Virus record (IMG/VR): IMGVR_UViG_3300032240_001498
Coordinates: 32,001-96,000 of that record
Direction: 5' to 3' (one strand)
Length of the DNA: 64,000 nt
Source: a virus
Lineage: Duplodnaviria > Caudoviricetes
A program made the position numbers and the translations under genes. Shown here in pieces: positions 2,654 through 56,656 of the stretch (positions within the stretch are counted from its first letter, which is position 1; each line of letters begins with the position of its first letter). Under the pieces are notes generated by a model, which made no database searches, was not told where the DNA came from, and was given only the letters and a program-made list of their open reading frames with translations.

Positions 2654-3136
2654 TTATTTATCCATGTTTTTAAGTTTTGCTATGAGACTGTTACGGTCAG
2701 CAATCACATAACCTTCACCTGCAACCACGCTATTTCCGTCATTAGGGTTATCTTTTTTGTCAATTGCCAGCTTTTTAAGCTGTAATTCCACCATTTTTAG
2801 CTTCTTATCAATCTTTGCTGACTTAGCTGTAATAGCGGCGGTAAGCATATTGCCCGCAACTTCAAACATTCGAGTACTATAACGGGCTTCTACATTCATA
2901 CCTAAATCATATATGTCATCAAATGCTTCTTCTGCTTTTTTAGCCAGTGCATCTAGCTCACTGTCACTGATATCGCCCAGGCCCTTGACCTGCGGAAGGG
3001 CCGCTGAGATTTTGTCAAATTCGTCTAGAGTAGCTTGTAGATTCACATGAGCAGGAGGGCTTGCTACTGGAGGTAACTCTACAGGCTTTTCGTCTGCAGG
3101 AGCAATGTTTAATAATTCTTCAAGTTTCTTAGTCAT
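2654..3136 (-). CDS. gp16: Probable terminase small subunit (gp16-like)
   Basis: The helical segment RMFEVAGNMLTAAITAKSAKIDKKLKMVELQLKK resembles the RAYEVAGQLIK...KLMDLQKK pattern of T4-like small terminases. It lies near gp4 and gp17. Confidence 0.6.
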   Translation of the reverse strand: MTKKLEELLNIAPADEKPVELPPVASPPAHVNLQATLDEFDKISAALPQVKGLGDISDSELDALAKKAEEAFDDIYDLGMNVEARYSTRMFEVAGNMLTAAITAKSAKIDKKLKMVELQLKKLAIDKKDNPNDGNSVVAGEGYVIADRNSLIAKLKNMDK

Positions 3137-11417: not shown

Positions 11418-12176
11418 TTAACCTCTTACAAACCACATTGGTGTTTCGCCTGTTTCACTGTTTCTAATAGCGGTTTCTAGTTTTTCAATCTCTTGCTGAC
11501 CTTCAGCTTTTAGTGCATCACCGTTTAGAGTAGTGCCACCTTGTGGCCCTGCGATTTGATTAAACTTGCTACGAGCTTCACCTAGGATAATTTTACAATT
11601 AGCCAGGGTATAATCTTTGACCCATATACCAGCATACGGATCTCTCACAAGATCAAAGTCTGGTCTATGATTATTAACCCATAATAACAGAGTTTCTTGT
11701 CCTCTAGGACGTTGCATTAGTGTTAATTTCTTGTTAGCAGGATTAAAACGGAAGTTGATAAAACTACCAAACATCTTACCAACTAGATTTTGATAACTTG
11801 CAAAGGCAAAATACGTTGCCAGGCCGCCCATGTTACTGCTACTTAACAAATATGTGTTGGTGTAGGCCAAGTTAAATGGTTCAAATAGAGTACCTGTATC
11901 GCCGCCGCCTGTGCGTGAACCAATACTTCTACGAAATACTTCACGAACACTCATAACTTCGGGCGCTAATTGGTATTCGTTGACGTCTTGATCCAGTGTT
12001 AAAAAAGCATAGCTTTCTTCAACTGAGTTTGCACTACGTTGACGATATACAGCTAGGGCACGATCTATAGCTGTGTTATAATTTTTAGGCTCAAGTTCAA
12101 CGTCAATCATGCCGTCTCCCAGCATGTTTTTAACGTAATCTATAATTTCTTGGCGGGCGTTACTTGTATCACTCAT
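11418..12176 (-). CDS. gp13: Neck protein (gp13-like)
   Basis: IIDYVKNMLG..MIDVEL...AIDRAL, WVKDYTLANCKIILGEARSKF and GGTTLNGDAL match the gp13 pattern. Confidence 0.85.
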   Translation of the reverse strand: MSDTSNARQEIIDYVKNMLGDGMIDVELEPKNYNTAIDRALAVYRQRSANSVEESYAFLTLDQDVNEYQLAPEVMSVREVFRRSIGSRTGGGDTGTLFEPFNLAYTNTYLLSSSNMGGLATYFAFASYQNLVGKMFGSFINFRFNPANKKLTLMQRPRGQETLLLWVNNHRPDFDLVRDPYAGIWVKDYTLANCKIILGEARSKFNQIAGPQGGTTLNGDALKAEGQQEIEKLETAIRNSETGETPMWFVRG

Positions 12177-12181
12177 GCTTA

Positions 12182-12195
12182 TATTTAGTTAAATA
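12182..12195. promoter_or_regulatory. Back-to-back late promoter cores for gp13 and gp14
   Basis: TATTTA-GT-TAAATA in the 26-bp gap between ATG 12176 (minus) and ATG 12203 (plus). Confidence 0.65.
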
Positions 12196-12202
12196 TACTA
12201 CT

Positions 12203-13411
12203 ATGCCAAGACTCTCTTTATACCGTCCCGAAAAGGGCAATGATTTTAAGTTCCTAGACCGGTTAATTAATGAACAATTTCAGGTTGGCGGAACCGATAT
12301 CTATATACACAAATACCTAGGTCCTGTAAACCCTGCGGACGGTGAATCCAGCCCCTCTGTTCCTGTTAATACTAATCCAATAGGCGAGCTGGGAATACAA
12401 GATGTGCTATTGATGGAAAATAGAGATCGTCATTATTCGCCCGACGTATATGTCATGCGATCAATATATACAATACAAGATTTAGACTTTAATCTAAGTC
12501 AGTTTGGTATTTTTTTACAAAATGATGCCATCATGCTTCACGTACACTTACGTTCAAGTGTAGAGTCTTTAGGCCGTAAAATTATGTCAGGTGATGTTAT
12601 TGAATTACCTCACTTGAAAGATGAATATGCATTAGATGACGCAATGGTTGCGTTGAAAAGATTTTATGTTGTACAGGATGTTACCCGTCCAGCTGCCGGA
12701 TTTAGTGCAACTTGGTATCCGCATTTGTTAAAACTAAAGTGCGTACCAATGATAGACAGCCAAGAATTTAGTGAAATACTTGATGAGAAACAGGTTGATA
12801 CACAAGGCAATGATACAAATCAAACCCTACGTGACTTGTTGTCTACCTATAATAGTGCTATTGCAACAAATAATGCTGTATTAGCTCAAGCAGAAGCGGA
12901 TCTTCCTAGAAGCGGATACGACACAACTCCGTTTTATGTAGTTCCCACTAATGATCAAGGCCTTGCTGATGTTGAAGATGTTAGCGATACTAATGTAGAT
13001 ACAACAGCGCAGGGAGCTATTGACGCATCTATGGTATTACGTACCCCTGATCACAATTACTATGTAGGCTACATAACCGATGACGGCAAACCTGCAAACG
13101 GAGCTCCATATACATTTGGAATAGAATGGCCAGCAAGACCTATATTAGGACAAATGCATCTACGAACAGACTATTTCCCAAACAGACTGTTTAGATTCGA
13201 TGGATCGCATTGGATAAAATTTGAAGATAATGTTAGAATGGATGTAACCAATACTCCAAAAGACGGCAATCAACAAACTCCAAACAGCCAAACAAGACAA
13301 ACAGAAGTTACCAGCTTTATCAATAACACAACTACTGCTACTATCGGAACCAAGGTTGTACAGCAACGTCAAGCATTGAGTAAGGCATTAAGACCAAAGG
13401 CGGACAATTAA
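12203..13411 (+). CDS. gp14: Neck/head-closure protein (gp14-like)
   Basis: The start MPRLSLYR is preferred. LLMENRDRHY, DFNLSQFGIFL and GRKIMSGDVIELPHL resemble gp14. It is adjacent to gp13 and gp15. Confidence 0.7.
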   Translation: MPRLSLYRPEKGNDFKFLDRLINEQFQVGGTDIYIHKYLGPVNPADGESSPSVPVNTNPIGELGIQDVLLMENRDRHYSPDVYVMRSIYTIQDLDFNLSQFGIFLQNDAIMLHVHLRSSVESLGRKIMSGDVIELPHLKDEYALDDAMVALKRFYVVQDVTRPAAGFSATWYPHLLKLKCVPMIDSQEFSEILDEKQVDTQGNDTNQTLRDLLSTYNSAIATNNAVLAQAEADLPRSGYDTTPFYVVPTNDQGLADVEDVSDTNVDTTAQGAIDASMVLRTPDHNYYVGYITDDGKPANGAPYTFGIEWPARPILGQMHLRTDYFPNRLFRFDGSHWIKFEDNVRMDVTNTPKDGNQQTPNSQTRQTEVTSFINNTTTATIGTKVVQQRQALSKALRPKADN

Positions 13412-13412
13412 G

Positions 13413-14843
13413 ATGGAGTTCTTTTACGATGGACAGATAAGACGTTACCTAACACAGTTTATGCGTCTAATGAGCAACTTTAGTTATAGAGATGCTAAAG
13501 GAAAAATTGTACAGGTTCCTGTTCGCTACGGTGACATGAATAGACAGGTAGCACAACTACAAAAGAAGAACAGTGAAAACACTATTCCAAGTGCTCCATT
13601 CATTGCCTGTTATATCAAAGACCTTAAAGTAGCTAGAACTAGAATACAAGAACCTACACATATCAGCAAGGTACATATCAAAGAGCGAGACTCGTGGTAT
13701 AATCCTGCTACAGGGCAAGATGAGTATCTCAACGTAGAAGGCGAAAACTATACAGTTGAACGATTAATGCCTGTTCCTTATGACTTGACCTTTCAAGCAG
13801 ATATATGGACCACTAACACAGATCAAAAATTGCAGTTGATTGAACAGCTATTGGTATTATTCCGACCTAGTTTAGAATTGCAAACAACTGACAATTATCT
13901 AGATTGGACCAGCCTAAGTACCTTGGAACTTACTGAGATGACTTTTAGCAGTAGACAAATTCCACAAGGAACAGAACAAGATATTGATATTTGCACCATG
14001 CAGTTTGAAACGCCTATATGGTTAACAACACCTGCAAAAGTTAAACAGATGGGCATCATTACAAATATTATTACTTCAATATTTGTTGAACCAGAAGGCA
14101 CACTAAATGCAGGAGGGTATCACAATGGCGGTGAAGTTGATTATTTTGCCGGCAGGCAGGCGGTATCAGTTGAAGGTACAACTCTAGGCAATCTCGGAAT
14201 ACTGGTATTGAACAGCACAGCCAAGCTATTAGCACCTGCAGAAGGTGTTACTACTGACGAAGTTCCTTTTAAATATGGAACAAATATCAGTTGGTTAAGA
14301 ATCTTAGACCTATATCCTGGAAAGTTTAAGGCAGGATTAAGTCAAATTAGGATTAAGAAGCCGTCTGGGTCAGAGATTGTTGCACGTATCAGTCTAGATC
14401 CTAATGACGAGTCTATCATGCACCTTGACATAGACTCAGATACTATCCCGGCAAATAACCAAGTTCCTCCGGGCAGTGGAAAAACATACGTTGATGCTAT
14501 CGTTGATCCTACTACCTTTGATCCTACCAGTCCTGTTGCAGGTATAAGATATCTTATACTAGAGGATGTCAACACAGATCCAAAATTAGACTATGCTATC
14601 GCCAACGATACTGCGGCTAAAGCATGGCGAAATTCAGATGCAACATATCTTGTGGCACACGCAAACGATATCGTAACATGGAACGGTTCACACTGGTCCG
14701 TTGTTTTCGATTCGCGCACAGTTACCGATCTCACTTATATAACTAATACTAGAACAGGCATACAATATGTCTGGGATGGCTCCATGTGGGGCAAGAGTTA
14801 TGAAGGTGAATACCGATCTGGTAATTGGCGATTATTTTTATGA
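13413..14843 (+). CDS. gp15: Tail sheath stabiliser/terminator (gp15-like) with a C-terminal extension
   Basis: FFYDGQIRRYLTQF, VPVRYG, PVPYDLTFQADIWT and QLIEQLLVLFRPSLE. Confidence 0.85.
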   Translation: MEFFYDGQIRRYLTQFMRLMSNFSYRDAKGKIVQVPVRYGDMNRQVAQLQKKNSENTIPSAPFIACYIKDLKVARTRIQEPTHISKVHIKERDSWYNPATGQDEYLNVEGENYTVERLMPVPYDLTFQADIWTTNTDQKLQLIEQLLVLFRPSLELQTTDNYLDWTSLSTLELTEMTFSSRQIPQGTEQDIDICTMQFETPIWLTTPAKVKQMGIITNIITSIFVEPEGTLNAGGYHNGGEVDYFAGRQAVSVEGTTLGNLGILVLNSTAKLLAPAEGVTTDEVPFKYGTNISWLRILDLYPGKFKAGLSQIRIKKPSGSEIVARISLDPNDESIMHLDIDSDTIPANNQVPPGSGKTYVDAIVDPTTFDPTSPVAGIRYLILEDVNTDPKLDYAIANDTAAKAWRNSDATYLVAHANDIVTWNGSHWSVVFDSRTVTDLTYITNTRTGIQYVWDGSMWGKSYEGEYRSGNWRLFL

Positions 14844-15268
14844 GTAATATAATTTGTAGTGGTGGAATATTTTTAGCAACAGATACTAAAAGATTTTTAT
14901 TTCTTTTACGCAATCAAGGCAAAACTGCTGGTACATGGGGTATTGTTGGTGGCAAAAATGAGCCGTTAGATGGTACACCTATTGCTACACTAAACAGAGA
15001 AATCACAGAAGAAGTTGGATTCCTGCCAGCGATTGACAAGTATGTTCCACTTGAATTGTTTACCAGCAAAGATGAAGGGTTTTATTACCACACATATTTG
15101 CTGTTAACCAAAGAAGAATTTATCCCCAAACTAAATGAAGAACATGTAGGGTACGCATGGTGTGATATAGAGCACACACCAAAACCATTACACAATGGTG
15201 TGCGTGTTACACTTAATAATAAGATTATTAAAGCTAAGATAGATACCGTAATCGATATCTTAACTTGA
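14840..15268 (+). CDS. Nudix hydrolase
   Basis: Nudix box GGKNEPLDGTPIATLNREITEEVG and EHVGYAW. It has an ATGA overlap with gp15. Confidence 0.85.
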   Translation: MSNIICSGGIFLATDTKRFLFLLRNQGKTAGTWGIVGGKNEPLDGTPIATLNREITEEVGFLPAIDKYVPLELFTSKDEGFYYHTYLLLTKEEFIPKLNEEHVGYAWCDIEHTPKPLHNGVRVTLNNKIIKAKIDTVIDILT

Positions 15269-16954
15269 TTTACGGACTACTAACAAGTAGAATCCATTCC
15301 ACCAAGCAGTTAAATCTTCCTGATTGTTTAGAATTACTTTAGAGTAAACAACATCTAATCCTGCGGCTTTAATGCCAGCATCAGTTCCGTCAACAACACC
15401 TTCCCAATTAGCATCATCTACTAGAATAAATGCTTCCTTGGCTAATATCTTAGAAAAGTATTTGATTGCTTTTGCTGTGGTATTAGGATCGTGAGGACCG
15501 TCATAGAAGAAAAAGTCTACCGGCTCAATCTCATCTAGATTAACAGCAAACAAGTCTGATTCATAGACTATGACTTTGTTGTCACCTTTGAATCTTTTCA
15601 CATTAGTGATAAAATCTTCTTTGTTATTTGGTGGCATTTCAAAGATGTCATTCGCTGGTTGGTAAGTGTCTTGCCATGTATCAATGCAGATTACTTCTAG
15701 CTTGTTATCTTTTAGAGCCGCACATGCTGTTGCACCTAGCGCACTACCTACTTCTAAATAGCGTGTAGAATTCTTAGCCAACTTATTGATAAGACTTTCC
15801 ATCTTCCAGCTTGTTAATCCAGGAACATCAATGTTTATCATGTCAATAGCACTATTCAATACTGCATCAATAGCCTGTTGGATTCTTGGACTAACAGGTG
15901 TGCTTTGTTTTTTGCTTACAACTTTATCGCAATACTGACATTCCCAGCAATCAAATTTGCAATTTTTAATTTTTTCTCGCCAAATGTTAATTGGCTTTTC
16001 TGTTAGGTTGCCTTCTTCAATATATTGTTCAAAGCCGTCAAACAGAATTTCGTCGCCTTCAATAAATCCTGCAACAATATCAAGTGTTTCGTGAAAGCGT
16101 TCAACACTTTCTCTACCGTGCATTTTAAACACATCGACATAGTCAAGTAATTCTACCCAATCTTCTCTCCAAGGAGGTAAGTTGGCAGTTTTTAATGGAA
16201 CACTTGGATCTTCATGATCCCATTTAGGACAACTTACACGACTGATACTGTCGTTAAAGTATTGAGGACGACCTGTATCTCTAGTGTTGTTAAATTGATA
16301 ATGTTCGTCCATCATTGGGCAAGCACCTAAACAACCTTCATTAGCTAGGAGACTGATAGTAACATCGCGACCTAGATTTTCTTTGACCCAAGTTTTGGCA
16401 GTTTTTAATCTTGCAAGTGCGTCTCGATCGCGCATTAGATCACGATCAATACATACGTAGTCAAATCCAGCTTTTGCATGAGCAACAAATTCAGCAGGAG
16501 TACGTACATTACGCAGAATAGTATTCTTAACATACAGGTCTGGGTAACGTGCTTGTATCTGTCCAGTGCTCATCCAATGCGTATGTGGAAGTATTACTGA
16601 TCTAATACCTGCATCATACAAGGGCTGGAAATTTTCTAGCCAAATATTGAGATTTTCTTGAGTGGGCGGAACTTCAATGTTATTGAAAGTAGCGCAAAGA
16701 GGGATGCCGGTCTCCCTGTTAAGGTTGAACGCGGCATCTATTACAGAGAATGCGTCTTGCTGAGAAACAAATATGTCTCCCATTGCATCTTGATTAAACG
16801 GAGGAATTCTTGATGTAAAGTATATATCAAAGATATAATCTTTATAGTGCTTACAAAACTCTAAAAAATTAAAGTATTGTGCTTCCGTTAATTTTGGGTT
16901 TATCGGTAAGCTGAATATTTTTTGCGTCTTCGCAGTAGTCTGGGATTCGTTCAT
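15260..16954 (-). CDS. U32-peptidase-like Fe-S TIM-barrel domain fused to a class I SAM methyltransferase
   Basis: The N-terminal part has DRDLMRD, LANEGCLGACP, VSCPKW, FKMHGR and CKFDCWECQYC. The C-terminal part has YLEVGSALGAT, FFFYDGPHD and ILVDDANW, a Methyltransf_24-like pattern. Confidence 0.7.
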   Translation of the reverse strand: MNESQTTAKTQKIFSLPINPKLTEAQYFNFLEFCKHYKDYIFDIYFTSRIPPFNQDAMGDIFVSQQDAFSVIDAAFNLNRETGIPLCATFNNIEVPPTQENLNIWLENFQPLYDAGIRSVILPHTHWMSTGQIQARYPDLYVKNTILRNVRTPAEFVAHAKAGFDYVCIDRDLMRDRDALARLKTAKTWVKENLGRDVTISLLANEGCLGACPMMDEHYQFNNTRDTGRPQYFNDSISRVSCPKWDHEDPSVPLKTANLPPWREDWVELLDYVDVFKMHGRESVERFHETLDIVAGFIEGDEILFDGFEQYIEEGNLTEKPINIWREKIKNCKFDCWECQYCDKVVSKKQSTPVSPRIQQAIDAVLNSAIDMINIDVPGLTSWKMESLINKLAKNSTRYLEVGSALGATACAALKDNKLEVICIDTWQDTYQPANDIFEMPPNNKEDFITNVKRFKGDNKVIVYESDLFAVNLDEIEPVDFFFYDGPHDPNTTAKAIKYFSKILAKEAFILVDDANWEGVVDGTDAGIKAAGLDVVYSKVILNNQEDLTAWWNGFYLLVVRKSS

Positions 16955-17705
16955 CTCTACTCTCTAGTAATTTATCGATAGAACTTTGTACGCCTAACGA
17001 TATATTATGTATCCCTGCTTGGACCTGCCCAGCATACTTTGTGGCCATTTGTAGGGCTTCAATTTGATCACCTTCTGGCATCATGGCAATACTGTCCATG
17101 TTGCCTGATGCAATACGACCAAAACTGATAATATCCATAGCGGCCTGTTTACCCATACGTGCAATCCAGTACTTGCGTTCTTCTTCTGCATTTTCTGCGG
17201 CAAACCATTCAAGGTCCTCTTCAGTTTTTGCATAGAATTTAACAATTTCTAAGAAAGCATTAATTTCTCGCTCTGCTTGGAGCATTTTACGTTTCCAAAT
17301 AGTAATATCGTAATCGTTTTTATCGATATCTACTTGCAACATTTCTTTAGCAATTTCGTCAACAGCTTCGGCTTGGTCACGCACCCACTTTTTACGAAGT
17401 AGTTCTGCTTTGCGAAGGCTTGCTTTAATTTCTTGATAAGCGTGATAGCGTGACTCGAGCTCCATATAGGCTTGTCGAACCTGACGCCATGGAGTAAGTT
17501 GACTGCGGGCTACAAAGTTTTGACATTGATAGGCAGTCATACCCATATTTGAATGTACGGCATAGGTCATGATTTCTTTTTCAAAATCACCCATATCGTA
17601 CCTTTTTAGAAAATCGTCATCGATATGTATTTCAGCTACATCTGAAGCTACGATATTTTCTATGTCTTTGATGTATGTGTTTATTTTTTTAGAATTGGAA
17701 TCCAT
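16869..17705 (-). CDS. Hypothetical helical/coiled-coil protein
   Basis: 278-aa ORF with a charged helical core (RQAYMELESRY...LRKAELLRKKW). It overlaps both neighbours. Confidence 0.7.
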   Translation of the reverse strand: MDSNSKKINTYIKDIENIVASDVAEIHIDDDFLKRYDMGDFEKEIMTYAVHSNMGMTAYQCQNFVARSQLTPWRQVRQAYMELESRYHAYQEIKASLRKAELLRKKWVRDQAEAVDEIAKEMLQVDIDKNDYDITIWKRKMLQAEREINAFLEIVKFYAKTEEDLEWFAAENAEEERKYWIARMGKQAAMDIISFGRIASGNMDSIAMMPEGDQIEALQMATKYAGQVQAGIHNISLGVQSSIDKLLESRDERIPDYCEDAKNIQLTDKPKINGSTIL

Positions 17706-18630
17706 GTGGCACCTGTGTTTTTCTTACGAAACTGTCAGGTCCTTCGGTCCATCCTAGCTCTTGTGCTTGCTTTACTGGGACAGCCAATCCGAAGTACCTT
17801 TCGTATTGAATATTTATATCCCACACAGTTTGGGCCGCTTTGAAATCGGCTATGACTCTTTGCTGTGCTACAAGTAGATCAGATAGTTGATCTTCGTAGG
17901 CTTCTGCTTTTTCTAAAATTTTGTTTGCTAATGCTGTTTTATCTTTATTGTGTGAAGTTGCTAGATAATCTAAAAATGGTGTGCGTGACCCATTTTGTCC
18001 TTGATTAGCTAACCATTCGCGAGCTTCATGTTTTTGTATTTCCCAAGATGCTTGCTCTAATTTACCACTTGGAGCCATTGTTAAAAATCTACGTTCAAAC
18101 TCATCTTCAATTGTTTCTTTAGCAAATAAGAACATGAAATCACGAACGTCTTTTACGATATCATCAGTTAGCTCTACCTGACGCTTGAAACCTGCATCCA
18201 AGTTTTGTACTGGAGAAATACCATCAGGTCCATGTGCTCTATCTTCTGTGTTTGCTATCCAAACTTTGGCCGCAGTACGATAGTCTGCAAAAAATTGCTT
18301 GCCATTAATTGCTACACTTTCTGTAATGTATGTAACTTTTGCTTTAGGCCATGTATAGTGTAGTGTATCATGCAGGTGTTTACTCATTGCTACGCATTGT
18401 ACATTAAATAGGCTATATAGTTCTTCACAATATAATGCAGGATCTTGGTGTGTGCTGTCAAACAATGAGTTAGGCAGCACATGATCTCCCACAATCATGA
18501 ATACTGTTGCTGAATTTACAAAAGTGTTGATATCATACGCAGGATCTCCTGAATATAATGCGGGAGGTAAAGCTTCTACGTTTGGATAAACTGATACATC
18601 CCAAAAGTCTACTGAATATTCTTGTGTCAT
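17689..18630 (-). CDS. Hypothetical protein whose C-terminus resembles tail-fibre assembly-associated proteins
   Basis: EQASWEIQKHEAREWL...TPFLDYLA...LANKILEKAEAY resembles a motif found in genes downstream of phage tail fibres. Confidence 0.55.
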   Translation of the reverse strand: MTQEYSVDFWDVSVYPNVEALPPALYSGDPAYDINTFVNSATVFMIVGDHVLPNSLFDSTHQDPALYCEELYSLFNVQCVAMSKHLHDTLHYTWPKAKVTYITESVAINGKQFFADYRTAAKVWIANTEDRAHGPDGISPVQNLDAGFKRQVELTDDIVKDVRDFMFLFAKETIEDEFERRFLTMAPSGKLEQASWEIQKHEAREWLANQGQNGSRTPFLDYLATSHNKDKTALANKILEKAEAYEDQLSDLLVAQQRVIADFKAAQTVWDINIQYERYFGLAVPVKQAQELGWTEGPDSFVRKTQVPHGFQF

Positions 18631-18631
18631 A

Positions 18632-19753
18632 TTAAACTCCTGGACGTCCTGAACTTGCTACTGTAGCCGCCGCCGAAACTGCGTGACCTGAACTTGCACC
18701 ATAGTGCCCTTTGTTACGTGTTGCCGCTGGCATACGTGTTTGTGCGTTGTTGTTATAAGTTGTCTTATCGCACTTGTTGTTTTGCTGGCCGTCATAGTTA
18801 CCAGTCATATAACCCCAGTCTTGTCCTGCCATCATAACGTCTTCGCCGTATGCTGATATCTGTGAGAAGTAGGCAATAGCTGAACCAGATGTTTCGTTAA
18901 ACTGCACACGACCTTGCTGTACGTTGTTGCCAGTACCGCTGTAATGCCAACCATATTTGGTGCTCAATAACTTCATGAATCCGTCTGGAGTAAACTGTGT
19001 CGGTGATCCAAACCATGAATCGTTTGAGTGATAAATGCCTGATGATCCGCCGCCGATTGAGAACCAAGAAATTTCTTGGCCGCCGCAACCTGAAGTTGGG
19101 CCACCACCGCGATTGTTACCAGTGGTGGTATACATGACTTCTGATGGAAAGTGCATCTTTTCTGTTGAGCTCGGACCTCCGCCTGTGCAATAACCGTATT
19201 GATAGGTTGCGGCACTGGTCGAACCGTGTGTTCTGCGGTTTACTGACATGTCCCAACCGCCAACTGTACCGTAGCCCATAACCGCCTGAGGATCGTCGCC
19301 CACATAACCGAATGAATAAGGACTGAATGTACCGCCTGTTTTACTGCGATTGATACCTGTATACAAGTTAAAACTGTCAGTGTGGCTGTTTGCTCCACCA
19401 AAGCCATTGTTTGTACCCAATGAGTAACCGTTATAGTCTGAGAAGAAACCATCCATGTAGTCTCCGGAATACATTAGCTGTTCTCCGCAGTAGTAGGTAA
19501 TATCTGTTGAATGCCATGTCTTGTTTAAGGCACGCCATGAATTGCCGCCCTTATAACCAGCCGCACTAAATCCGTGTGTTAACACACTACGGTATCTGTA
19601 ACCTGCTTGCGGGTTACCCGATGGGCTACCTGGATAAGTCCAAAATGCTGTAGTTCCGTCAGTTACCAACGTTGCGCCGCGGCAGTATGTGTCCGAACTT
19701 GGTAGCGGATAAATGCCCGGAATAATGTTAGTGTTACCAATGTATAATGCCAT
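18632..19753 (-). CDS. Gly/Ser/Tyr-rich repeat protein, possibly a beta-propeller fibre-tip protein
   Basis: Repeated units with GY..GG, for example YGYCTGGG and WGYMTGNY. The leader has GAGGAAACTAAC. Confidence 0.6.
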   Translation of the reverse strand: MALYIGNTNIIPGIYPLPSSDTYCRGATLVTDGTTAFWTYPGSPSGNPQAGYRYRSVLTHGFSAAGYKGGNSWRALNKTWHSTDITYYCGEQLMYSGDYMDGFFSDYNGYSLGTNNGFGGANSHTDSFNLYTGINRSKTGGTFSPYSFGYVGDDPQAVMGYGTVGGWDMSVNRRTHGSTSAATYQYGYCTGGGPSSTEKMHFPSEVMYTTTGNNRGGGPTSGCGGQEISWFSIGGGSSGIYHSNDSWFGSPTQFTPDGFMKLLSTKYGWHYSGTGNNVQQGRVQFNETSGSAIAYFSQISAYGEDVMMAGQDWGYMTGNYDGQQNNKCDKTTYNNNAQTRMPAATRNKGHYGASSGHAVSAAATVASSGRPGV

Positions 19754-19778
19754 GTTAGTTTCCTCTTATTACTGTTAT

Positions 19779-22295
19779 TTATTTAAGTAGCTGGGCTACC
19801 AATGCTTTTAACTGTGCAACTTCTTCTTTTAGTTGCGCAATTTCGTCTGAATGTTCGTTGTGTCCTGCAATTACCAAGGGCACTAATTTTTCGTACTGTA
19901 CAGTTAGATAGTTTTCGCCGGATTTGCTCTGGCCGTTTTCGTCTACGTCTAATGCCGCTAATCCCACAGCTTGGGGCTGTACAGCCTGTACTTGTGCCGC
20001 GTTCACACCAACCTGTTCACGAGTAGATTTTTGTCCTAGGCTAAGAGCCAGCTCGTTATTAACGTAGATAAATGTATCAAGTGTTTTTAGTTTGGCGCTG
20101 GCACTGGTTACAGGAGCAATAACTGTTTTTAGTCTAATATCAGATGTATTAGAATAAATGTCACCTGTTACATATAGTACGCCGTTGACCTGTATTGCAC
20201 CAGTACCGTTTGATTGTAGTGTGTTGTTGCCTGAACGATATATGTACCATTCGCCAGTACCGTTACCGCGCAGATATGTACCACTGGCGTAATTGTAAGT
20301 ACCAAAGAATAAGGATCCGCCACTTGTAACGTTAATATCGCCTGATCCGTTTACCTGTAAACATACGCCCGAGCCGTTACCTACAGAGTTGTTGTTTAAA
20401 GTCAATGCACCCGATGCCGCACCAGTGATAGTATGGGTAACGCCTGAGTTGCTGATTGTTAGTTGGTTGCTACCGTTGATAGTTGTGAAGTTGCCCGAGT
20501 AGGCTGTAACGCCAGAACCAATCGGTCCTTGGAATGTTGTTGTAGCAATAACTGTTGGGCAGGATAATGTAGTAGTACCTGGATTATAAGTTAGTGATGC
20601 GCTGTTGACGTTAAGTGTTGTGATCGCACCACTTACTGAGTTTGTAAATGTTGGGTAATAAGTAGCGTTGGTTGTAATGTTTGCAACAGTAACACCAGTC
20701 TGCGCCCATTGGAGTCCAGTACCAGTCGATGTCAGTGCGTAACCACTTGTACCTGCAGATCCACCAATGTATAATGCTCCGCGGAGAGTTAGTCCACTTG
20801 CAATATCAACACCGCCTGCAACTGCAAATGCGCCTGTACCTGCTGTACCGTTGGCCGCAGTAGTTGAGTTAACTGTAAAGTCACCACTGCCGTTGGCAAT
20901 TAATCTAATGTTACCTGCGCCGTCTGAAATAATAATACCGTTAGAAACAATGGTTCCGCCTGCATTACCACCTATGATAACTGCGTTGTTGATTGCGGCA
21001 CCAATACTTGTACCAGCACCGTAACCAATTAGGGTATTACTTGCTCCGCTGACTAACGCATTACCTGCATTATAACCAATCAAGGTATTTTGATAGCCAC
21101 CGGCCATTTGGAAACCAGCTTGATAACCAATTGCAGTATTGTTGTAGAAGCCACCGTTACCTGTACCTAGCGCACGATAACCAATCGCCACGTTGTTCTG
21201 CATGGCTGTATTATTGGCAGTATACATGGCCTGATAACCAATAGCAGTATTGTTACCGCCTGTGGCTGTTTGGGCCAATAACGCTTGATAACCAATTGCA
21301 GTATTACCTGCAGAACTTGTCAGTGCGTTACCTGCATAGTAACCAATCAGCGCATTAGTACCACCAGTTAATAGTGCGGCACCTGCACCTGTACCTACAA
21401 CTAAATTTGTTGCAATACTTGAGTTACCTGTACCAAAACGTACACCGCTGTGGAAAGCATCACTGCCTGTTACAATACCACCGCCTGCTGATATACCACC
21501 ATAGGTTACGATAGCACCAGTACCTGTTGATGCAATACCAGATGCGATAGTGATTGCTGTTGATAGTGGTATGCTTATACCAGTAGCACTAACTGTTAAT
21601 CCGTTTAGTTGTGTTGCAATGGCACCAGCTGATTGACTGGCGCTTGATACTAAAAAGTTTAAATTGCCAGATGTTAATTGAACTTGTGCATTATAGCCTG
21701 TACCGCTTACATAAGTTGTACCAGCGTTATTGTAGCTGTTTAGGCCAATGCCTAACGGATATGTACTTGCGCCAACCTGAATAGCAACAGCTTGCGAATT
21801 TCCTGAATTATAAAAGTAGCCAGCAACGTTTGTAGTTGTGCTAACTGTAATACCATATGTAGATCCTGCACCACCAACACCTAAGTTAGCGTTCATGGCA
21901 AACGAACCGCCGATATTTAAGTTACCCGAAATACCTGCACCACCAAATACCTGTAGACTACCTGTTTGTGTTGTTGTAGATTGTATTGGGCTTGTAGATG
22001 CACCAATGTATGTAACACCATTGTATGGGGCAATGTTAACTGCGCCGGTATCTTGTACAATAAGACTTGGTATACCGCTCTTATCTGTAACGGTATACAA
22101 ATAACCAGCCATACTGTCGATCACACTTTGTAACTGTCCGTTCGTACCTTCCCATGCTTGCGTACCATTATCTAGAACACGCACATACGTAGATGCAGAG
22201 CTGGCCGAAGCGCCGCCAGTAAACCTTATGATCGGCTCGGTTGTGCTTGAACCAATGTTTGGCGTTATTAAAATATTACGATCTGTATATGCCAT
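19779..22295 (-). CDS. Tail fibre with NTAIGY repeats and a C-terminal peptidase S74 intramolecular chaperone
   Basis: About 8 N(T/V/A)xIGYxA repeats. The C-terminus has SDIRLK...GVNAAQVQAVQP...YLTVQYEKLVPLVI plus a coiled coil. Confidence 0.85.
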   Translation of the reverse strand: MAYTDRNILITPNIGSSTTEPIIRFTGGASASSASTYVRVLDNGTQAWEGTNGQLQSVIDSMAGYLYTVTDKSGIPSLIVQDTGAVNIAPYNGVTYIGASTSPIQSTTTQTGSLQVFGGAGISGNLNIGGSFAMNANLGVGGAGSTYGITVSTTTNVAGYFYNSGNSQAVAIQVGASTYPLGIGLNSYNNAGTTYVSGTGYNAQVQLTSGNLNFLVSSASQSAGAIATQLNGLTVSATGISIPLSTAITIASGIASTGTGAIVTYGGISAGGGIVTGSDAFHSGVRFGTGNSSIATNLVVGTGAGAALLTGGTNALIGYYAGNALTSSAGNTAIGYQALLAQTATGGNNTAIGYQAMYTANNTAMQNNVAIGYRALGTGNGGFYNNTAIGYQAGFQMAGGYQNTLIGYNAGNALVSGASNTLIGYGAGTSIGAAINNAVIIGGNAGGTIVSNGIIISDGAGNIRLIANGSGDFTVNSTTAANGTAGTGAFAVAGGVDIASGLTLRGALYIGGSAGTSGYALTSTGTGLQWAQTGVTVANITTNATYYPTFTNSVSGAITTLNVNSASLTYNPGTTTLSCPTVIATTTFQGPIGSGVTAYSGNFTTINGSNQLTISNSGVTHTITGAASGALTLNNNSVGNGSGVCLQVNGSGDINVTSGGSLFFGTYNYASGTYLRGNGTGEWYIYRSGNNTLQSNGTGAIQVNGVLYVTGDIYSNTSDIRLKTVIAPVTSASAKLKTLDTFIYVNNELALSLGQKSTREQVGVNAAQVQAVQPQAVGLAALDVDENGQSKSGENYLTVQYEKLVPLVIAGHNEHSDEIAQLKEEVAQLKALVAQLLK

Positions 22296-22329
22296 CTCTT
22301 ATTCCATTGTTCCTGTATTTATTGGTCTA

Positions 22330-31900: not shown

Positions 31901-34900
31901 ACTTGTGCTCTGTGCAAGACTTGTGATTCGGAGTGCATTTGGAACAAATCCACCTAGGCTAGAACCAATTGTTGCTGTTGTAACAATTTCGCTACCTGCT
32001 GAATAACCTTTACCAGTTAGGTATAATGTGTTTGCGCCAATGCCACCGTTAGGAACACTAACAGCATTGTTTAATATAGAACTTGTTGAACCGGCTGCGC
32101 TGTAAGTAGTAATTGTGCTACCAGCTCGTACCTGTAAGCCAACTCCCAAGCCACCGCCGACTGTTAGGGCACCTGTATTTGTGCTTGTTGAATCAGTTAG
32201 TGCTGGAACAGCAAATGATCCGCTGATTGTTAGGCCGCCGACTACTGTTGCACTACTATTAATTGTTGTAATGCCGCTTGACGGAGTAATAGAAATTCCA
32301 CCACTTAGCGCAGATAAACTATTGCCTGAAAGACTTAGATTACCAACTGTAATGCTGGTCGGCAATATAGTAGCGTAGTGGCTTCCATCTGTAATTTGTA
32401 ATTGATTTAAACTAGATAAGTTAACATTAGCGTTACCAAAACTTACGTTACCTGTTTGCTCATTGATTAAGAAGCTGTTACCTACACGGAAGTTTCCGCC
32501 TTGATCAACAGTCTGGAAGTAGACAAGACCACCATTGGTTTGAATAACTTCGTTTGCTTGAACAACAAGACTTGTGTCGTTTGAAAAGTCTTTGCCTGCA
32601 CCAATATGACTCATATTGTAGGCAATTAATTTTAAGTCTGTACCAGTACCGTTGGCGATAACACCTTGAGTACCGTAAACTGATGCAGATCCAATGCAAC
32701 GTAATTCTGCGCCAAACTGATGATAGTCAGCTAGAGCAATACGTGTCGCACTTGCGGCTGCGTTTGAATATACGTTTTGTGTTCCGTTGGCAGAGTCAAC
32801 AAAAGTAGTTGAAAGATTTCCGCCATCAAAGTTCAACATTAAGATTGTTGCAACATCAGATGTTAATGCAGAAGTTGGAAGTGTATACGTGCCTCCGGTA
32901 TATCTTGCAACGTTACTTAAACGGAAATCATCTATATAACCGTCAATACTATCAGATGCAGTAGAAGATTGACCTCCAATACTAAATGGGTCAACGTTAT
33001 TAACGTTATCTGACACTCCGGTTGTGTATGCATCAAGTGTACCGTTTAAGTATACTCTAAATGTGCCTAGGCTTGCGTTTCTAACAACAGCAACATGGTA
33101 CCACACACCAGTAGTTAGAGCAGTAATACCTGTAATTTGACTATTACCGTGACCTGCTTGTAATACGTTACCAGTAGTAACACGCAATCTCATATTTGAT
33201 GCAGTTGTTAATCCTTTGTAGTAGACACGATGTATTTTGCCTAATGAATTCAAATAAACCCATGCTTCGACTGTATAGCTACCTAGGCTACCAAATTGGA
33301 AATCGCTGTCGCTGAGTACTTCTAAGTAGTCACCGTTGCCATCACCTAGATATGAGCTGGTTCCAAATTTCTTTTGAACTGTACTTTGTTTAGCATCTCC
33401 ATAGGCAGTAATTGTCTTGCCAGCGCGATCTGTAATTGTTTCAAAGCCCCAAACTGGTCCTGCTAGGTATACGTATGTACCGTCAACGCTGGCGATAGTA
33501 CCTTGTGCTTTTATGTTGCCGCTTGGATCTTTATAGGTAAGTATGTCACCTGCACCAAATGTGCCAGTTACGCCAGAAAGTTTTAATCTTGTCTTACCAG
33601 CTCCTGCAAAACCTGTTGCGCCTGCTTCAGCTTGAATTGACTTGCTGGCAAAGTATGTAAAGCCGTTCAATAATTCTGCACGGGCGCCGTTGGTCATATA
33701 GATACCGGTGGCATTAGGAACAATAAATGTTGCTTCGTTGAATAATAGTGCTGGTTCTAAACTTGTTGCATCTAGTACTGCGGCATCTAAGTATGCACCG
33801 TTACCTGCATCGCCTTGATTAAATCCAAACGGATCGCTGGCACTGGTTACTGAGCCGCGTGTAATTACAGAGAAACGTTCAACATATGGACTCTTAGAAG
33901 TAATCTTTGCGCCAGGAGCAAACTTTAATGCATAACCTGGTTTGTAGAATCCAGTGACTGTAAAGTCAGTGATTGTTGTTTCACCGTTTAATAAAATTGC
34001 GTCTTGTGTGTTTGTTCCGCTGGTAGGCTGAACAATAGTTGCACGTAGACCTGCACCCTTAACTGTAACACCTGCTGGAATAGTTAAAGGAAATATTTCA
34101 ATATAGGTACCTGGCTCGATATAAACAGTTTGTCCAGCTGTAGCAACTGTTAACGCTTTCTTAATTGTTTTGAAAGCTGACGCTGTTCTGCGGCCGTCAT
34201 TAGCGTCATTACCTACATCAGAAACATACCAAATGTCTGTATCATAATGTAGAATATCAATACCGTTGATATTAACTGTGCCTGTGCCAACGCTGATTAG
34301 ATCTAAGCCTAGTGTTAGCGCAGAAACTGTGTTGACATAGATTGTGCTACTGAATAAAGCGTTGCCCGAAACACTTAGGGCTGTTCCTGTTGAGTTAAGG
34401 AATGATCCTAGACCACCAACGTTTAATGTAGTTGCAAGTCCAACACCGCCGGCTACTCGTAATGCGCCAGATGTAGATCCTGTTGATGTTTGTGTGCTGG
34501 CAATGTACAATGAGTTATTGATTGTACCACCAGAGAAACTGTTAATTGTTGATGAAGTAACAATTTGTGCTCCGTTGATATAACCAGAATCTGTAATTAA
34601 TATGGTCTTAGCACTGATACCACCTAGCACTTGTAGGGCATTTGTTGCGGTATCTGTTGTGCTGGTTGTTTGATTTAAAACTTTGACAATGTTGGTAGTT
34701 GAGCTACCGCGATCTGTCACAGTCTGTAGTGTTGATAAATTGCTTAGAACAATATCACCAGTGTAATATGATTGGCCGTTCCATGTGACATTTAGGTCAC
34801 CTTGTACGCTAACTGTTAGTACCCCTCTGTTATAGATATTTGGAACACCAACGATCATACCATTGGTTGCTGTGAAGCCGCCTGTTCCTGCGATACCGAT

Positions 34901-55008: not shown

Positions 55009-55037
55009 ATGATTATTCCTTTACCCTTTATTTATTT

Positions 55038-56563: not shown

Positions 56564-56645
56564 TTTAATTTCTCCTTAATGTATGTGGGTTCTAGCCACT
56601 GCGCGGATGGGAACCGCAACAAGTCCGGATCGGACAGTATATTTA
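56564..56645 (-). promoter_or_regulatory. Late promoter plus a three-hairpin 5' leader
   Basis: TAAATA at 56645-56640, then GUCCG/CGGAC, GCGG/CCGC and GUGG/CCAC stems before AAGGAG. Confidence 0.55.
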
Positions 56646-56656
56646 TTGTGGTCAAC

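Follow-up and report, generated by a model that had tools for sequence, protein, structure and literature searches.

The 64,000-nucleotide (nt) stretch described here, positions 32,001 to 96,000 of IMG/VR record IMGVR_UViG_3300032240_001498 (hereafter the window), comes from an uncultured phage, whose structural region it represents. On its minus strand, behind the gene of an 838-amino-acid (aa) tail fibre (P0005), lies a cassette of four tightly packed genes, which encode the proteins P0004, P0003, P0002 and P0001 (Table 1). Catalogues of cyanophage genes have listed the four families as hypothetical since 2010, with no fold, function or module described for them, and our literature searches (U32 in phage, peptidase U32 in cyanophage, sericin in cyanophage or phage) found no paper on the module. 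Here predicted folds are given to two of the four proteins, P0004 and P0001, and the genes are recognised as one conserved late module, which is tied to tail-fibre regions from T4-like cyanophages to a phiKZ-like Ralstonia phage.

The source record comprises 200,604 bases (200.6 kb), with a CheckV completeness estimate of 55%. Because a close relative of the record reaches 331.6 kb at 93% completeness, the virus is a jumbo phage, with an estimated genome of 330-360 kb and with T4-like cyanophage genes, among them gp15-like, sheath and neck genes.

The original prediction for this locus, made from the sequence, had described four genes linked by overlaps or a 1-nt gap, which follow the fibre gene after 25 nt with no terminator. 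The coordinates of the open reading frames (ORFs) and the junction sequences agree with this description: all genes are on the minus strand, and no terminator-like site was found on that strand from 22295 to 15260. The fibre gene ends in TAA, which is followed by a 25-nt spacer containing the Shine-Dalgarno-like stretch AAGAGGAAA, and then by the ATG of P0004. The P0004/P0003 junction reads TAA-T-ATG, the P0003 and P0002 genes overlap by 17 nt, and those of P0002 and P0001 by 86 nt (16869-16954). The latter overlap is genuine, because from 16954 to K12-P17, where the conserved part of P0001 begins, there is no other in-frame ATG, GTG or TTG at which a shorter protein could start. Both proteins are conserved across the overlap, with P0001 read in the +1 frame relative to P0002, thus this stretch codes in two frames. 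Overlaps of the same type, 47-101 nt long, are also present in Syn33, in P-HM2 and in related IMG/VR loci that have the genes in the same order.

Table 1. Features of the cassette and its surroundings (numbered from the first nucleotide of the window, unless another locus is named)
Feature	Position	Strand	Remarks
P0004, 373 aa	19753..18632	-	predicted Kelch-type propeller; T4-GC351, phrog_1417
P0003, 313 aa	18630..17689	-	T4-GC352, phrog_1604
P0002, 278 aa	17705..16869	-	T4-GC353, phrog_1409
P0001, 564 aa	16954..15260	-	predicted fusion of U32 fold and O-methyltransferase; T4-GC354, phrog_1458
Fibre P0005, 838 aa	22295..19779	-	Pfam Peptidase_S74 and PHROG tail-fibre families
ATAAATA, late-promoter-like motif	22316..22322	-	20 nt upstream of the fibre ATG
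ATAAATA, late-promoter-like motif	19776..19782	-	inside the 25-nt gap, 22 nt before the ATG of P0004; overlaps the stop codon of the fibre gene
Perfect TATAAATA (sequence of T4-type late promoters)	17811..17818	-	inside P0003, 105 nt upstream of the P0002 ATG; contains ATAAATA (17811-17817); promoter function doubtful
ATAAATA	2655-2661	-	
ATAAATA	55029-55035	-	
ATAAATA	56640-56646	-	
Neck-like gene	12164-13411	+	
gp15-like gene	13413-14843	+	
NUDIX hydrolase gene	14825-15268	+	convergent with the cassette, 9-nt overlap with the end of P0001; downstream of the gp15-like and neck-like genes
ConA-like lectin protein, 217 aa	22330-22983	-	Laminin_G_3, 38.9 bits; between the 4537-aa gene and the fibre
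Giant ORF, 4537 aa	22985-36598	-	upstream of the fibre
Giant ORF, 2295 aa	36671-43558	-	upstream of the fibre
Giant ORF, 2952 aa	43970-52828	-	upstream of the fibre
RP12 ORF138, DUF401/CitMHS transporter-like membrane protein	L003:9664-10704		overlaps the end of the stand-alone U32-like gene

Predicted folds and conserved residues

P0001 had been labelled a fusion of U32 and methyltransferase domains, and at the level of the fold the label proved right. The AlphaFold2 (AF2) model of P0001 (predicted local distance difference test score, pLDDT, 86) has two domains, a TIM barrel of the U32 fold (residues ~9-350) and a methyltransferase (~365-564). Residues 9-287 of the model superimpose on the U32 peptidase Mk0906 (5d88_A) with a Z-score of 16.9 and a root mean square deviation (rmsd) of 3.1 over 227/247 residues, and of the 50 chains listed in a PDB-wide VIA search no other than 5d88 was a barrel. 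The top Swiss-Prot model match of the N-terminal domain (N-domain) was the U32 protein MJ1657 (template modelling score, TM, 0.73 by hit, E 5.9e-11), and AFDB clusters named 'Peptidase U32' matched it with a TM of 0.80 by hit.

Among 63 representatives of the wider N-domain family, which extend down to 19% identity, C332, C336, C339 and C342 are invariant, and C208, C212 and C242 are at least 90% conserved. In the K277-x-x-G280-R281 motif of the same family K277 and R281 never vary, and the conservation of G280 is at least 90%. The N-domain shares the barrel with the U32 iron-sulfur (Fe-S) hydroxylases TrhP, RlhA and UbiU/UbiV, and two details can be compared. The C208-X3-C212-X29-C242 cluster stands directly after the strand equivalent to the one followed by the cysteine cluster of U32 proteins, and the K-x-x-G-R segment FKMHGRE may correspond to the KIEGR of the latter. 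The seven conserved cysteines probably bind one or two Fe-S clusters.

In sequence the evidence for U32 homology is weak, and a series of observations weighs against reading U32 chemistry into P0001. The Pfam family PF01136 had no match at E ≤ 10 in the 200-kb record, none at E ≤ 0.1 in P0001, and none in the 63 representatives of the wider family; a PDB profile search with P0001 did not reach 5d88. Alignment of the N-domain by hhalign with E. coli UbiU, UbiV, TrhP and RlhA was collinear, with probabilities of 6-14%, and the confident part of the local alignment spans residues 70-176 only. The placement of FKMHGRE on the KIEGR of UbiU, TrhP and RlhA comes from the greedy alignment (probability 6%, E 0.006). 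The published U32 signature CX6CX15CX3/4C, which binds a [4Fe-4S] cluster (Pelosi et al. 2019, PMC6747719), is absent from P0001, which has C208-X3-C212-X29-C242 and C332-X3-C336-X2-C339-X2-C342 instead. The N-domain family comprises 434 clusters at 50% identity, mostly stand-alone proteins of 330-450 aa, and most of its members lack a methyltransferase, which was found in 3 of the 63 representatives. Because the fold matches, but PF01136 is absent and the cysteine signature is replaced, the P0001 N-domain is treated here as a distinct cysteine-rich branch of the U32 fold, outside Pfam's family and beyond its reach. It differs from the U32 hydroxylases also by the extra invariant CX3CX2CX2C cluster, by its fusion to a methyltransferase, and by being phage-encoded and late, in a tail-fibre module.

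The C-terminal domain (C-domain) of P0001 has a Pfam Methyltransf_24 match (PF13578, residues 400-514, 47 bits, cut-off 26.3). Its fold matches include the O-methyltransferase 5x7f (Z 17.0), MeT1 (6g7d, Z 16.7), TrmR (5zw3, Z 15.5) and SpnH (4cdz, Z 15.5), and the best PDB match by sequence is B. subtilis TrmR/YrrM, the O-methyltransferase of 5-hydroxyuridine (ho5U), with a profile E-value of 0.002. The S-adenosylmethionine (SAM) motif I reads LEVGSALG, with E401, G403 and G407 invariant. In the HMMER alignment (E 0.002) D485, D513 and D514 fall on the metal-binding FID and TDN positions of TrmR. The C-domain resembles the class I O-methyltransferases (TrmR/YrrM, CCoAOMT/catechol O-methyltransferase, Rv0187; Methyltransf_24 and Methyltransf_3) in the Rossmann fold (Z 15-17), in the E-V-G-x-x-x-G form of motif I and, as this alignment suggests, in conserved acidic residues where the three metal ligands are expected. 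It differs from them at the third of these positions, which is Asp rather than Asn, and in being the C-terminal part of a fusion. Judged by its model and motifs, the C-domain is predicted to be a cation-dependent class I SAM O-methyltransferase, active-looking, whose substrate specificity cannot be read from the fold.

P0004, a protein rich in Gly (16%), Ser (11%), Thr (10%) and Tyr (8%), had been called propeller-like, and the predicted structure supports this. Its AF2 model (pLDDT 82, predicted TM score 0.82) is a six-bladed Kelch-type beta-propeller. Model residues 56-364 superimpose on the Kelch domain of KLHL17 (6hrl_B) with Z 30.5 and rmsd 2.3 over 271 residues, and the TM to Keap1 is 0.79-0.80 when normalised by the target. 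The best match in BFVD was the 'sericin 1-like' protein of the S-RIM12 cyanophage; Kelch-like virion structural proteins of jumbo phages (PhiPA3, CBB) were matched as well, and so were the propeller lectins 4csd, 6trv and 5mxc. No Pfam family, Kelch repeats included, matched P0004 at E ≤ 0.1; the Atlas gave leads only, with a Kelch family assigned to 22% of one cluster's members. Unlike Keap1 and KLHL17, P0004 has neither a Pfam Kelch match nor a BTB/BACK part. It has an N-terminal beta-rich segment of ~55 residues, modelled at low confidence, and in related phages its family is represented by one, two or three paralogues in tandem.

P0003 and P0002 are both acidic, and neither matches a known family in Pfam or the PDB, either as proteins or as profiles. 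P0003 had been described as fibre-assembly-like, a label that found no support: similarity to chaperone families was not detectable in Pfam, PHROG or PDB-profile searches. In Pfam, where the chaperones considered were T4 gp38/gp57A, Phage_tail_APC and Caudo_TAP, neither P0003 nor 24 members of its family had a match. The PDB search with the P0003 profile gave nothing beyond a 26-residue chance match with E 0.8. This match, an acyl-carrier-protein-like stretch, was rejected, the carrier serine being missing. Atlas leads for P0003 scored below 0.8. P0003 does match phrog_1604 at 9e-33 and P0002 phrog_1409 at 6e-65, both without functional annotation. The conserved motifs of P0002 are NFV..Q.TP..K.RQ..EL and ER.YW..R.AKQAA.D...GRIG.GN; its match to CBFA2T1 in the PDB profile search (E 0.88) was rejected as chance-level.

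Conservation and late timing of the module

Gene neighbourhoods were compared in 80 IMG/VR loci, 58 of which have at least 3.5 kb upstream of the enzyme gene. In all 58 a P0002-like gene and one to three tandem propeller genes stand beside the enzyme gene, a grouping far beyond chance. Rare co-occurrence, which would speak against a dedicated system, was thus contradicted. P0003-like genes were detected by BLAST in 17 loci, and most of the others have a shorter relative between the P0002-like and the enzyme genes. From the position of the P0003-like gene two orders can be distinguished: propeller, P0003, P0002, enzyme (A-B-C-E) in one clade, and A(n)-C-B'-E, with the shorter form B', in another. 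Two or three tandem propeller paralogues precede a single enzyme gene in L029, L044, L050, L055, L067, L083 and other loci, which fits one enzyme serving several substrates or binders. A P0005-like fibre gene precedes the cassette in the jumbo-clade loci with enough flank (L010-L014, L016, L020, L021, L023, L025, L028) and in a few others.

The module recurs in hundreds of marine phages. Its enzyme is very common: clustering at 90% identity gives more than 1,875 groups, and IMG/VR has at least 589 stretches with it. In tblastn searches of phage records P0001 and P0002 were each found in 126, with the same breakdown by organism, which includes three Ralstonia phages, and P0004 in 111. Megablast of the cassette against the phage collection gave no match, and relatives were found at the protein level only.

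The cassette corresponds to T4-GC351-354 (Sullivan et al. 2010) and to PHROGs 1417, 1604, 1409 and 1458. T4-GC351-354 are present in P-SSM4, P-HM2, Syn19, Syn33 and S-ShM2, and the same four-gene order after fibre genes is found in Syn33, S-BM1, S-CAM4 and P-HM2, at quite different genome positions. These cyanophage genes are direct orthologues in the same order; three of the four proteins are 29-45% identical, and the fourth is connected by its PHROG match. They are annotated only as hypothetical or 'sericin 1 precursor-like', and the copy in the window differs from them by residing in a jumbo genome.

In the phiKZ-like Ralstonia phage RP12 the P0002-like protein is ORF140, and ORF139 (40% identity) is a U32-like domain alone, without methyltransferase. 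In sequence ORF142 (292 aa) shows only a weak similarity to the propeller (blastp E 0.002, hhalign E 0.006). It is probably a propeller too, because the RP12 protein matched by fold in BFVD has the same length of 292 aa. The order of these genes (propeller-like, P0002-like, U32-like) is that of the window cassette. ORF141 was considered as a counterpart of P0003 and rejected, as there was no similarity. The transporter-like ORF138 that overlaps the end of the U32-like gene is unusual for a phage structural region.

A 430-aa stand-alone U32-like relative on an unrelated phage contig (L089:2-8257) directly follows genes for a tail fibre and a tail-fibre-assembly chaperone, and is itself followed by three uncharacterised genes and a Nol-like carbamoyltransferase gene. 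The distant stand-alone relatives P0319, P0256 and P0272 have no P0002-like, P0003-like or propeller neighbours, which makes the partners a specific trait of the cyanophage/RP12 branch. Further distant relatives were found in surroundings that look bacterial and contain no partner genes. Of the dedicated fibre-linked system originally proposed, the conserved tight unit behind fibre genes stands, and was found in many phages, whereas the assembly role assigned to P0003 lacks the expected chaperone similarity.

Late timing had also been proposed. For the orthologues in P-HM2 it agrees with published expression data: PHM2_098-101 belong to late clusters D and E, and the fibre genes PHM2_095-097 to cluster E (Thompson et al. 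2016, PMC5082946, S2 Table). In the window itself the heptamer ATAAATA is depleted (6 copies versus 20 +/- 4 expected in shuffles), and all copies are on the coding strand. Four of them are located 17-22 nt before start codons (at 2637, 19753, 22295 and 55008), a pattern which fits T4-type late promoters with very short leaders. The copy upstream of the fibre gene is kept at 20-22 nt where the P0001 homologue is 74-97% identical. That upstream of the propeller gene is kept at 21-26 nt in L010-L025, where it is one of 1-3 plus-strand copies in 14-20 kb. Only close relatives (90-97% identity) retain the TATAAATA inside P0003, whereas the 75% clade does not, and we therefore doubt that it serves as an internal late promoter. 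The expression of the orthologues and the motif patterns make it very likely that the cassette is expressed late, from a putative promoter of its own besides any read-through from the fibre gene. Since the gap contains its own late-promoter-like motif, co-transcription with the fibre gene is not required.

Possible targets of P0001

Hydroxylation dependent on a U32 protein and subsequent O-methylation are a recurring pair: TrhP and then TrmR produce 5-methoxyuridine (mo5U), and UbiU/V is followed by UbiG. P0001 combines a U32-like domain with an O-methyltransferase domain of the TrmR type in one chain. This fusion suggests that hydroxylation is followed by methylation, and we tentatively propose, as a reading which is quite possible, that the enzyme acts in this way on the co-encoded propeller or fibre protein. 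The pairing of a U32-type enzyme with an O-methyltransferase is known; new is the setting, a phage tail-fibre module with a propeller and two partners of no known family.

Characterised U32 proteins are required for aromatic carbons to be hydroxylated independently of O2, the oxygen coming from prephenate, direct in-vitro hydroxylase activity not having been shown yet; their substrates are RNA bases (TrhP, RlhA) and the quinone ring, and U32 proteins are now treated as Fe-S hydroxylases (PMC6747719, PMC10990095). A chorismate mutase gene was not found in the 200-kb record, and prephenate would be expected to be supplied by the host.

The proposed reaction would take place late in the infected cell. 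The U32-like domain of P0001 would add a hydroxyl group, which the fused methyltransferase would cap, so that a methoxy group results. This modification would affect the propeller encoded alongside, the fibre protein or a moiety carried by either, and would precede or accompany fibre assembly. P0002, the constant neighbour of the enzyme gene, may be a partner that the U32-like domain cannot do without or a subunit that directs it to its target, and P0003 a more variable accessory. The constancy of P0002 recalls the UbiU-UbiV pair, but P0002 is not a U32 protein. In this scheme the identity of the substrate, Fe-S binding, hydroxylase chemistry, the sequential action of the two domains and an association of P0002 with P0001 are our inferences. 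A protein or protein-attached target is favoured by the linkage to propeller and fibre genes, by the late timing, by the absence of tRNA genes and by the acidity of all four cassette proteins (for P0001 an isoelectric point of 4.85 and a net charge of about -25).

A second group of observations speaks against a virion protein as the target. We know of no U32 enzyme that acts on protein. The propeller-like, P0002-like and U32-like orthologues are absent from the RP31 virion proteome of 32 proteins, and because the propeller-like orthologue is not among them, the propeller may lie outside the virion. S-SM1, S-PM2 and Syn9, which provide the virion-proteome context, do not have the four-gene cassette. 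The variability of the propeller does not exceed that of the enzyme, unlike in a typical receptor-binding tip. Finally, the transporter-like ORF138 adjoining the U32-like gene of RP12 hints at a small-molecule substrate.

This last hint belongs to an alternative in which hydroxylation and O-methylation by the enzyme serve to modify a sugar, a glycan of the cell envelope or a metabolite, the propeller being a lectin-like binder and not the substrate. Sugar O-methyltransferases (MeT1, SpnH) match the C-domain as well as the catechol and RNA enzymes do, and the propeller lectins among the fold matches of P0004 point in the same direction. So do the ConA-like lectin gene upstream of the fibre, the weak Laminin_G_3 signal in some propeller homologues and the surroundings of distant relatives, one of which lies a few genes from the carbamoyltransferase gene and another near Maf/MptE-like and acetyltransferase genes. 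Yet no glycosyltransferase or sugar-nucleotide gene is present in the cassette or its flanks, the transporter neighbour occurs in RP12 only, and the genes to which the enzyme gene is strictly linked encode protein partners and do not form a biosynthetic cluster. We consider this alternative unlikely.

P0001 could also be a TrhP and a TrmR in one protein, which makes a 5-methoxy-pyrimidine in tRNA, rRNA or phage DNA, with its place behind the fibre gene incidental. This would explain why TrmR/YrrM is the best PDB sequence match of the C-domain and would agree with the action of the characterised TrhP and RlhA on RNA; in Bacillus yrrM presumably lies beside the U32 genes yrrN and yrrO. An incidental location is hard to reconcile with the propeller and P0002-like neighbours in 58/58 loci, or with the position of the enzyme gene after fibre genes in lineages as distant as cyanomyoviruses and a phiKZ-like phage. 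Moreover, P0001 lacks an additional domain for RNA binding and is strongly acidic, the record contains no tRNA gene, and the orthologues are expressed late, with structural genes. A nucleic acid target is, in our judgement, quite improbable.

It is very improbable that the U32-like domain trims the Gly-rich fibre or propeller as a collagenase-like peptidase, or that P0001 is a virion component without catalytic activity. Collagenases such as PrtC were the basis on which U32 was originally defined, one JGI homologue is annotated as a 'collagenase-like PrtC family protease' and the neighbouring proteins are Gly-rich. But the fibre has its own self-cleaving Peptidase_S74 chaperone, redox and methyl-transfer chemistry is indicated by the seven conserved cysteines and by SAM and metal motifs that look intact, U32 proteins are at present viewed as Fe-S hydroxylases, and the U32-like orthologue is missing from the RP31 virion proteome.

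The tentatively preferred hydroxylation and methylation of a co-encoded protein can be narrowed to a specific form, in which an O2-independent Fe-S hydroxylase-methyltransferase of the U32 type methoxylates a Kelch-propeller adhesin of the fibre tip on side chains, aromatic or other. We regard this form as doubtful. If true, it would extend U32 chemistry to proteins and add a new post-translational modification to the virions of some of the ocean's most abundant phages. More generally, with a virion protein or a receptor glycan as the target, the module would represent a new layer of host-recognition chemistry in marine phages, and P0001 the first U32-type enzyme whose substrate is neither RNA nor quinone. 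Cultured phages bearing the module are P-HM2, Syn33, S-RIM2 and P-SSM4.

Genes around the cassette

ARAGORN detected no tRNA gene in the 200-kb record, which is ~55% complete. A tRNA-free stretch of this length is unusual when compared with T4-like cyanophages.

The fibre P0005 is rich in Gly, Thr and Ala, and has at its C-terminus an intramolecular chaperone domain of the endosialidase-type self-cleaving kind (Peptidase_S74, PF13884, residues 718-777, 29.9 bits, cut-off 22). It also matches PHROG tail-fibre families, for instance phrog_5481 at 1e-17. Upstream of the fibre gene are the gene of the ConA-like lectin protein and three giant ORFs. A longer propeller homologue, P0156 (623 aa), has a weak N-terminal match to Laminin_G_3, below the cut-off, and the signal shared with the lectin protein hints that lectin and propeller work together.

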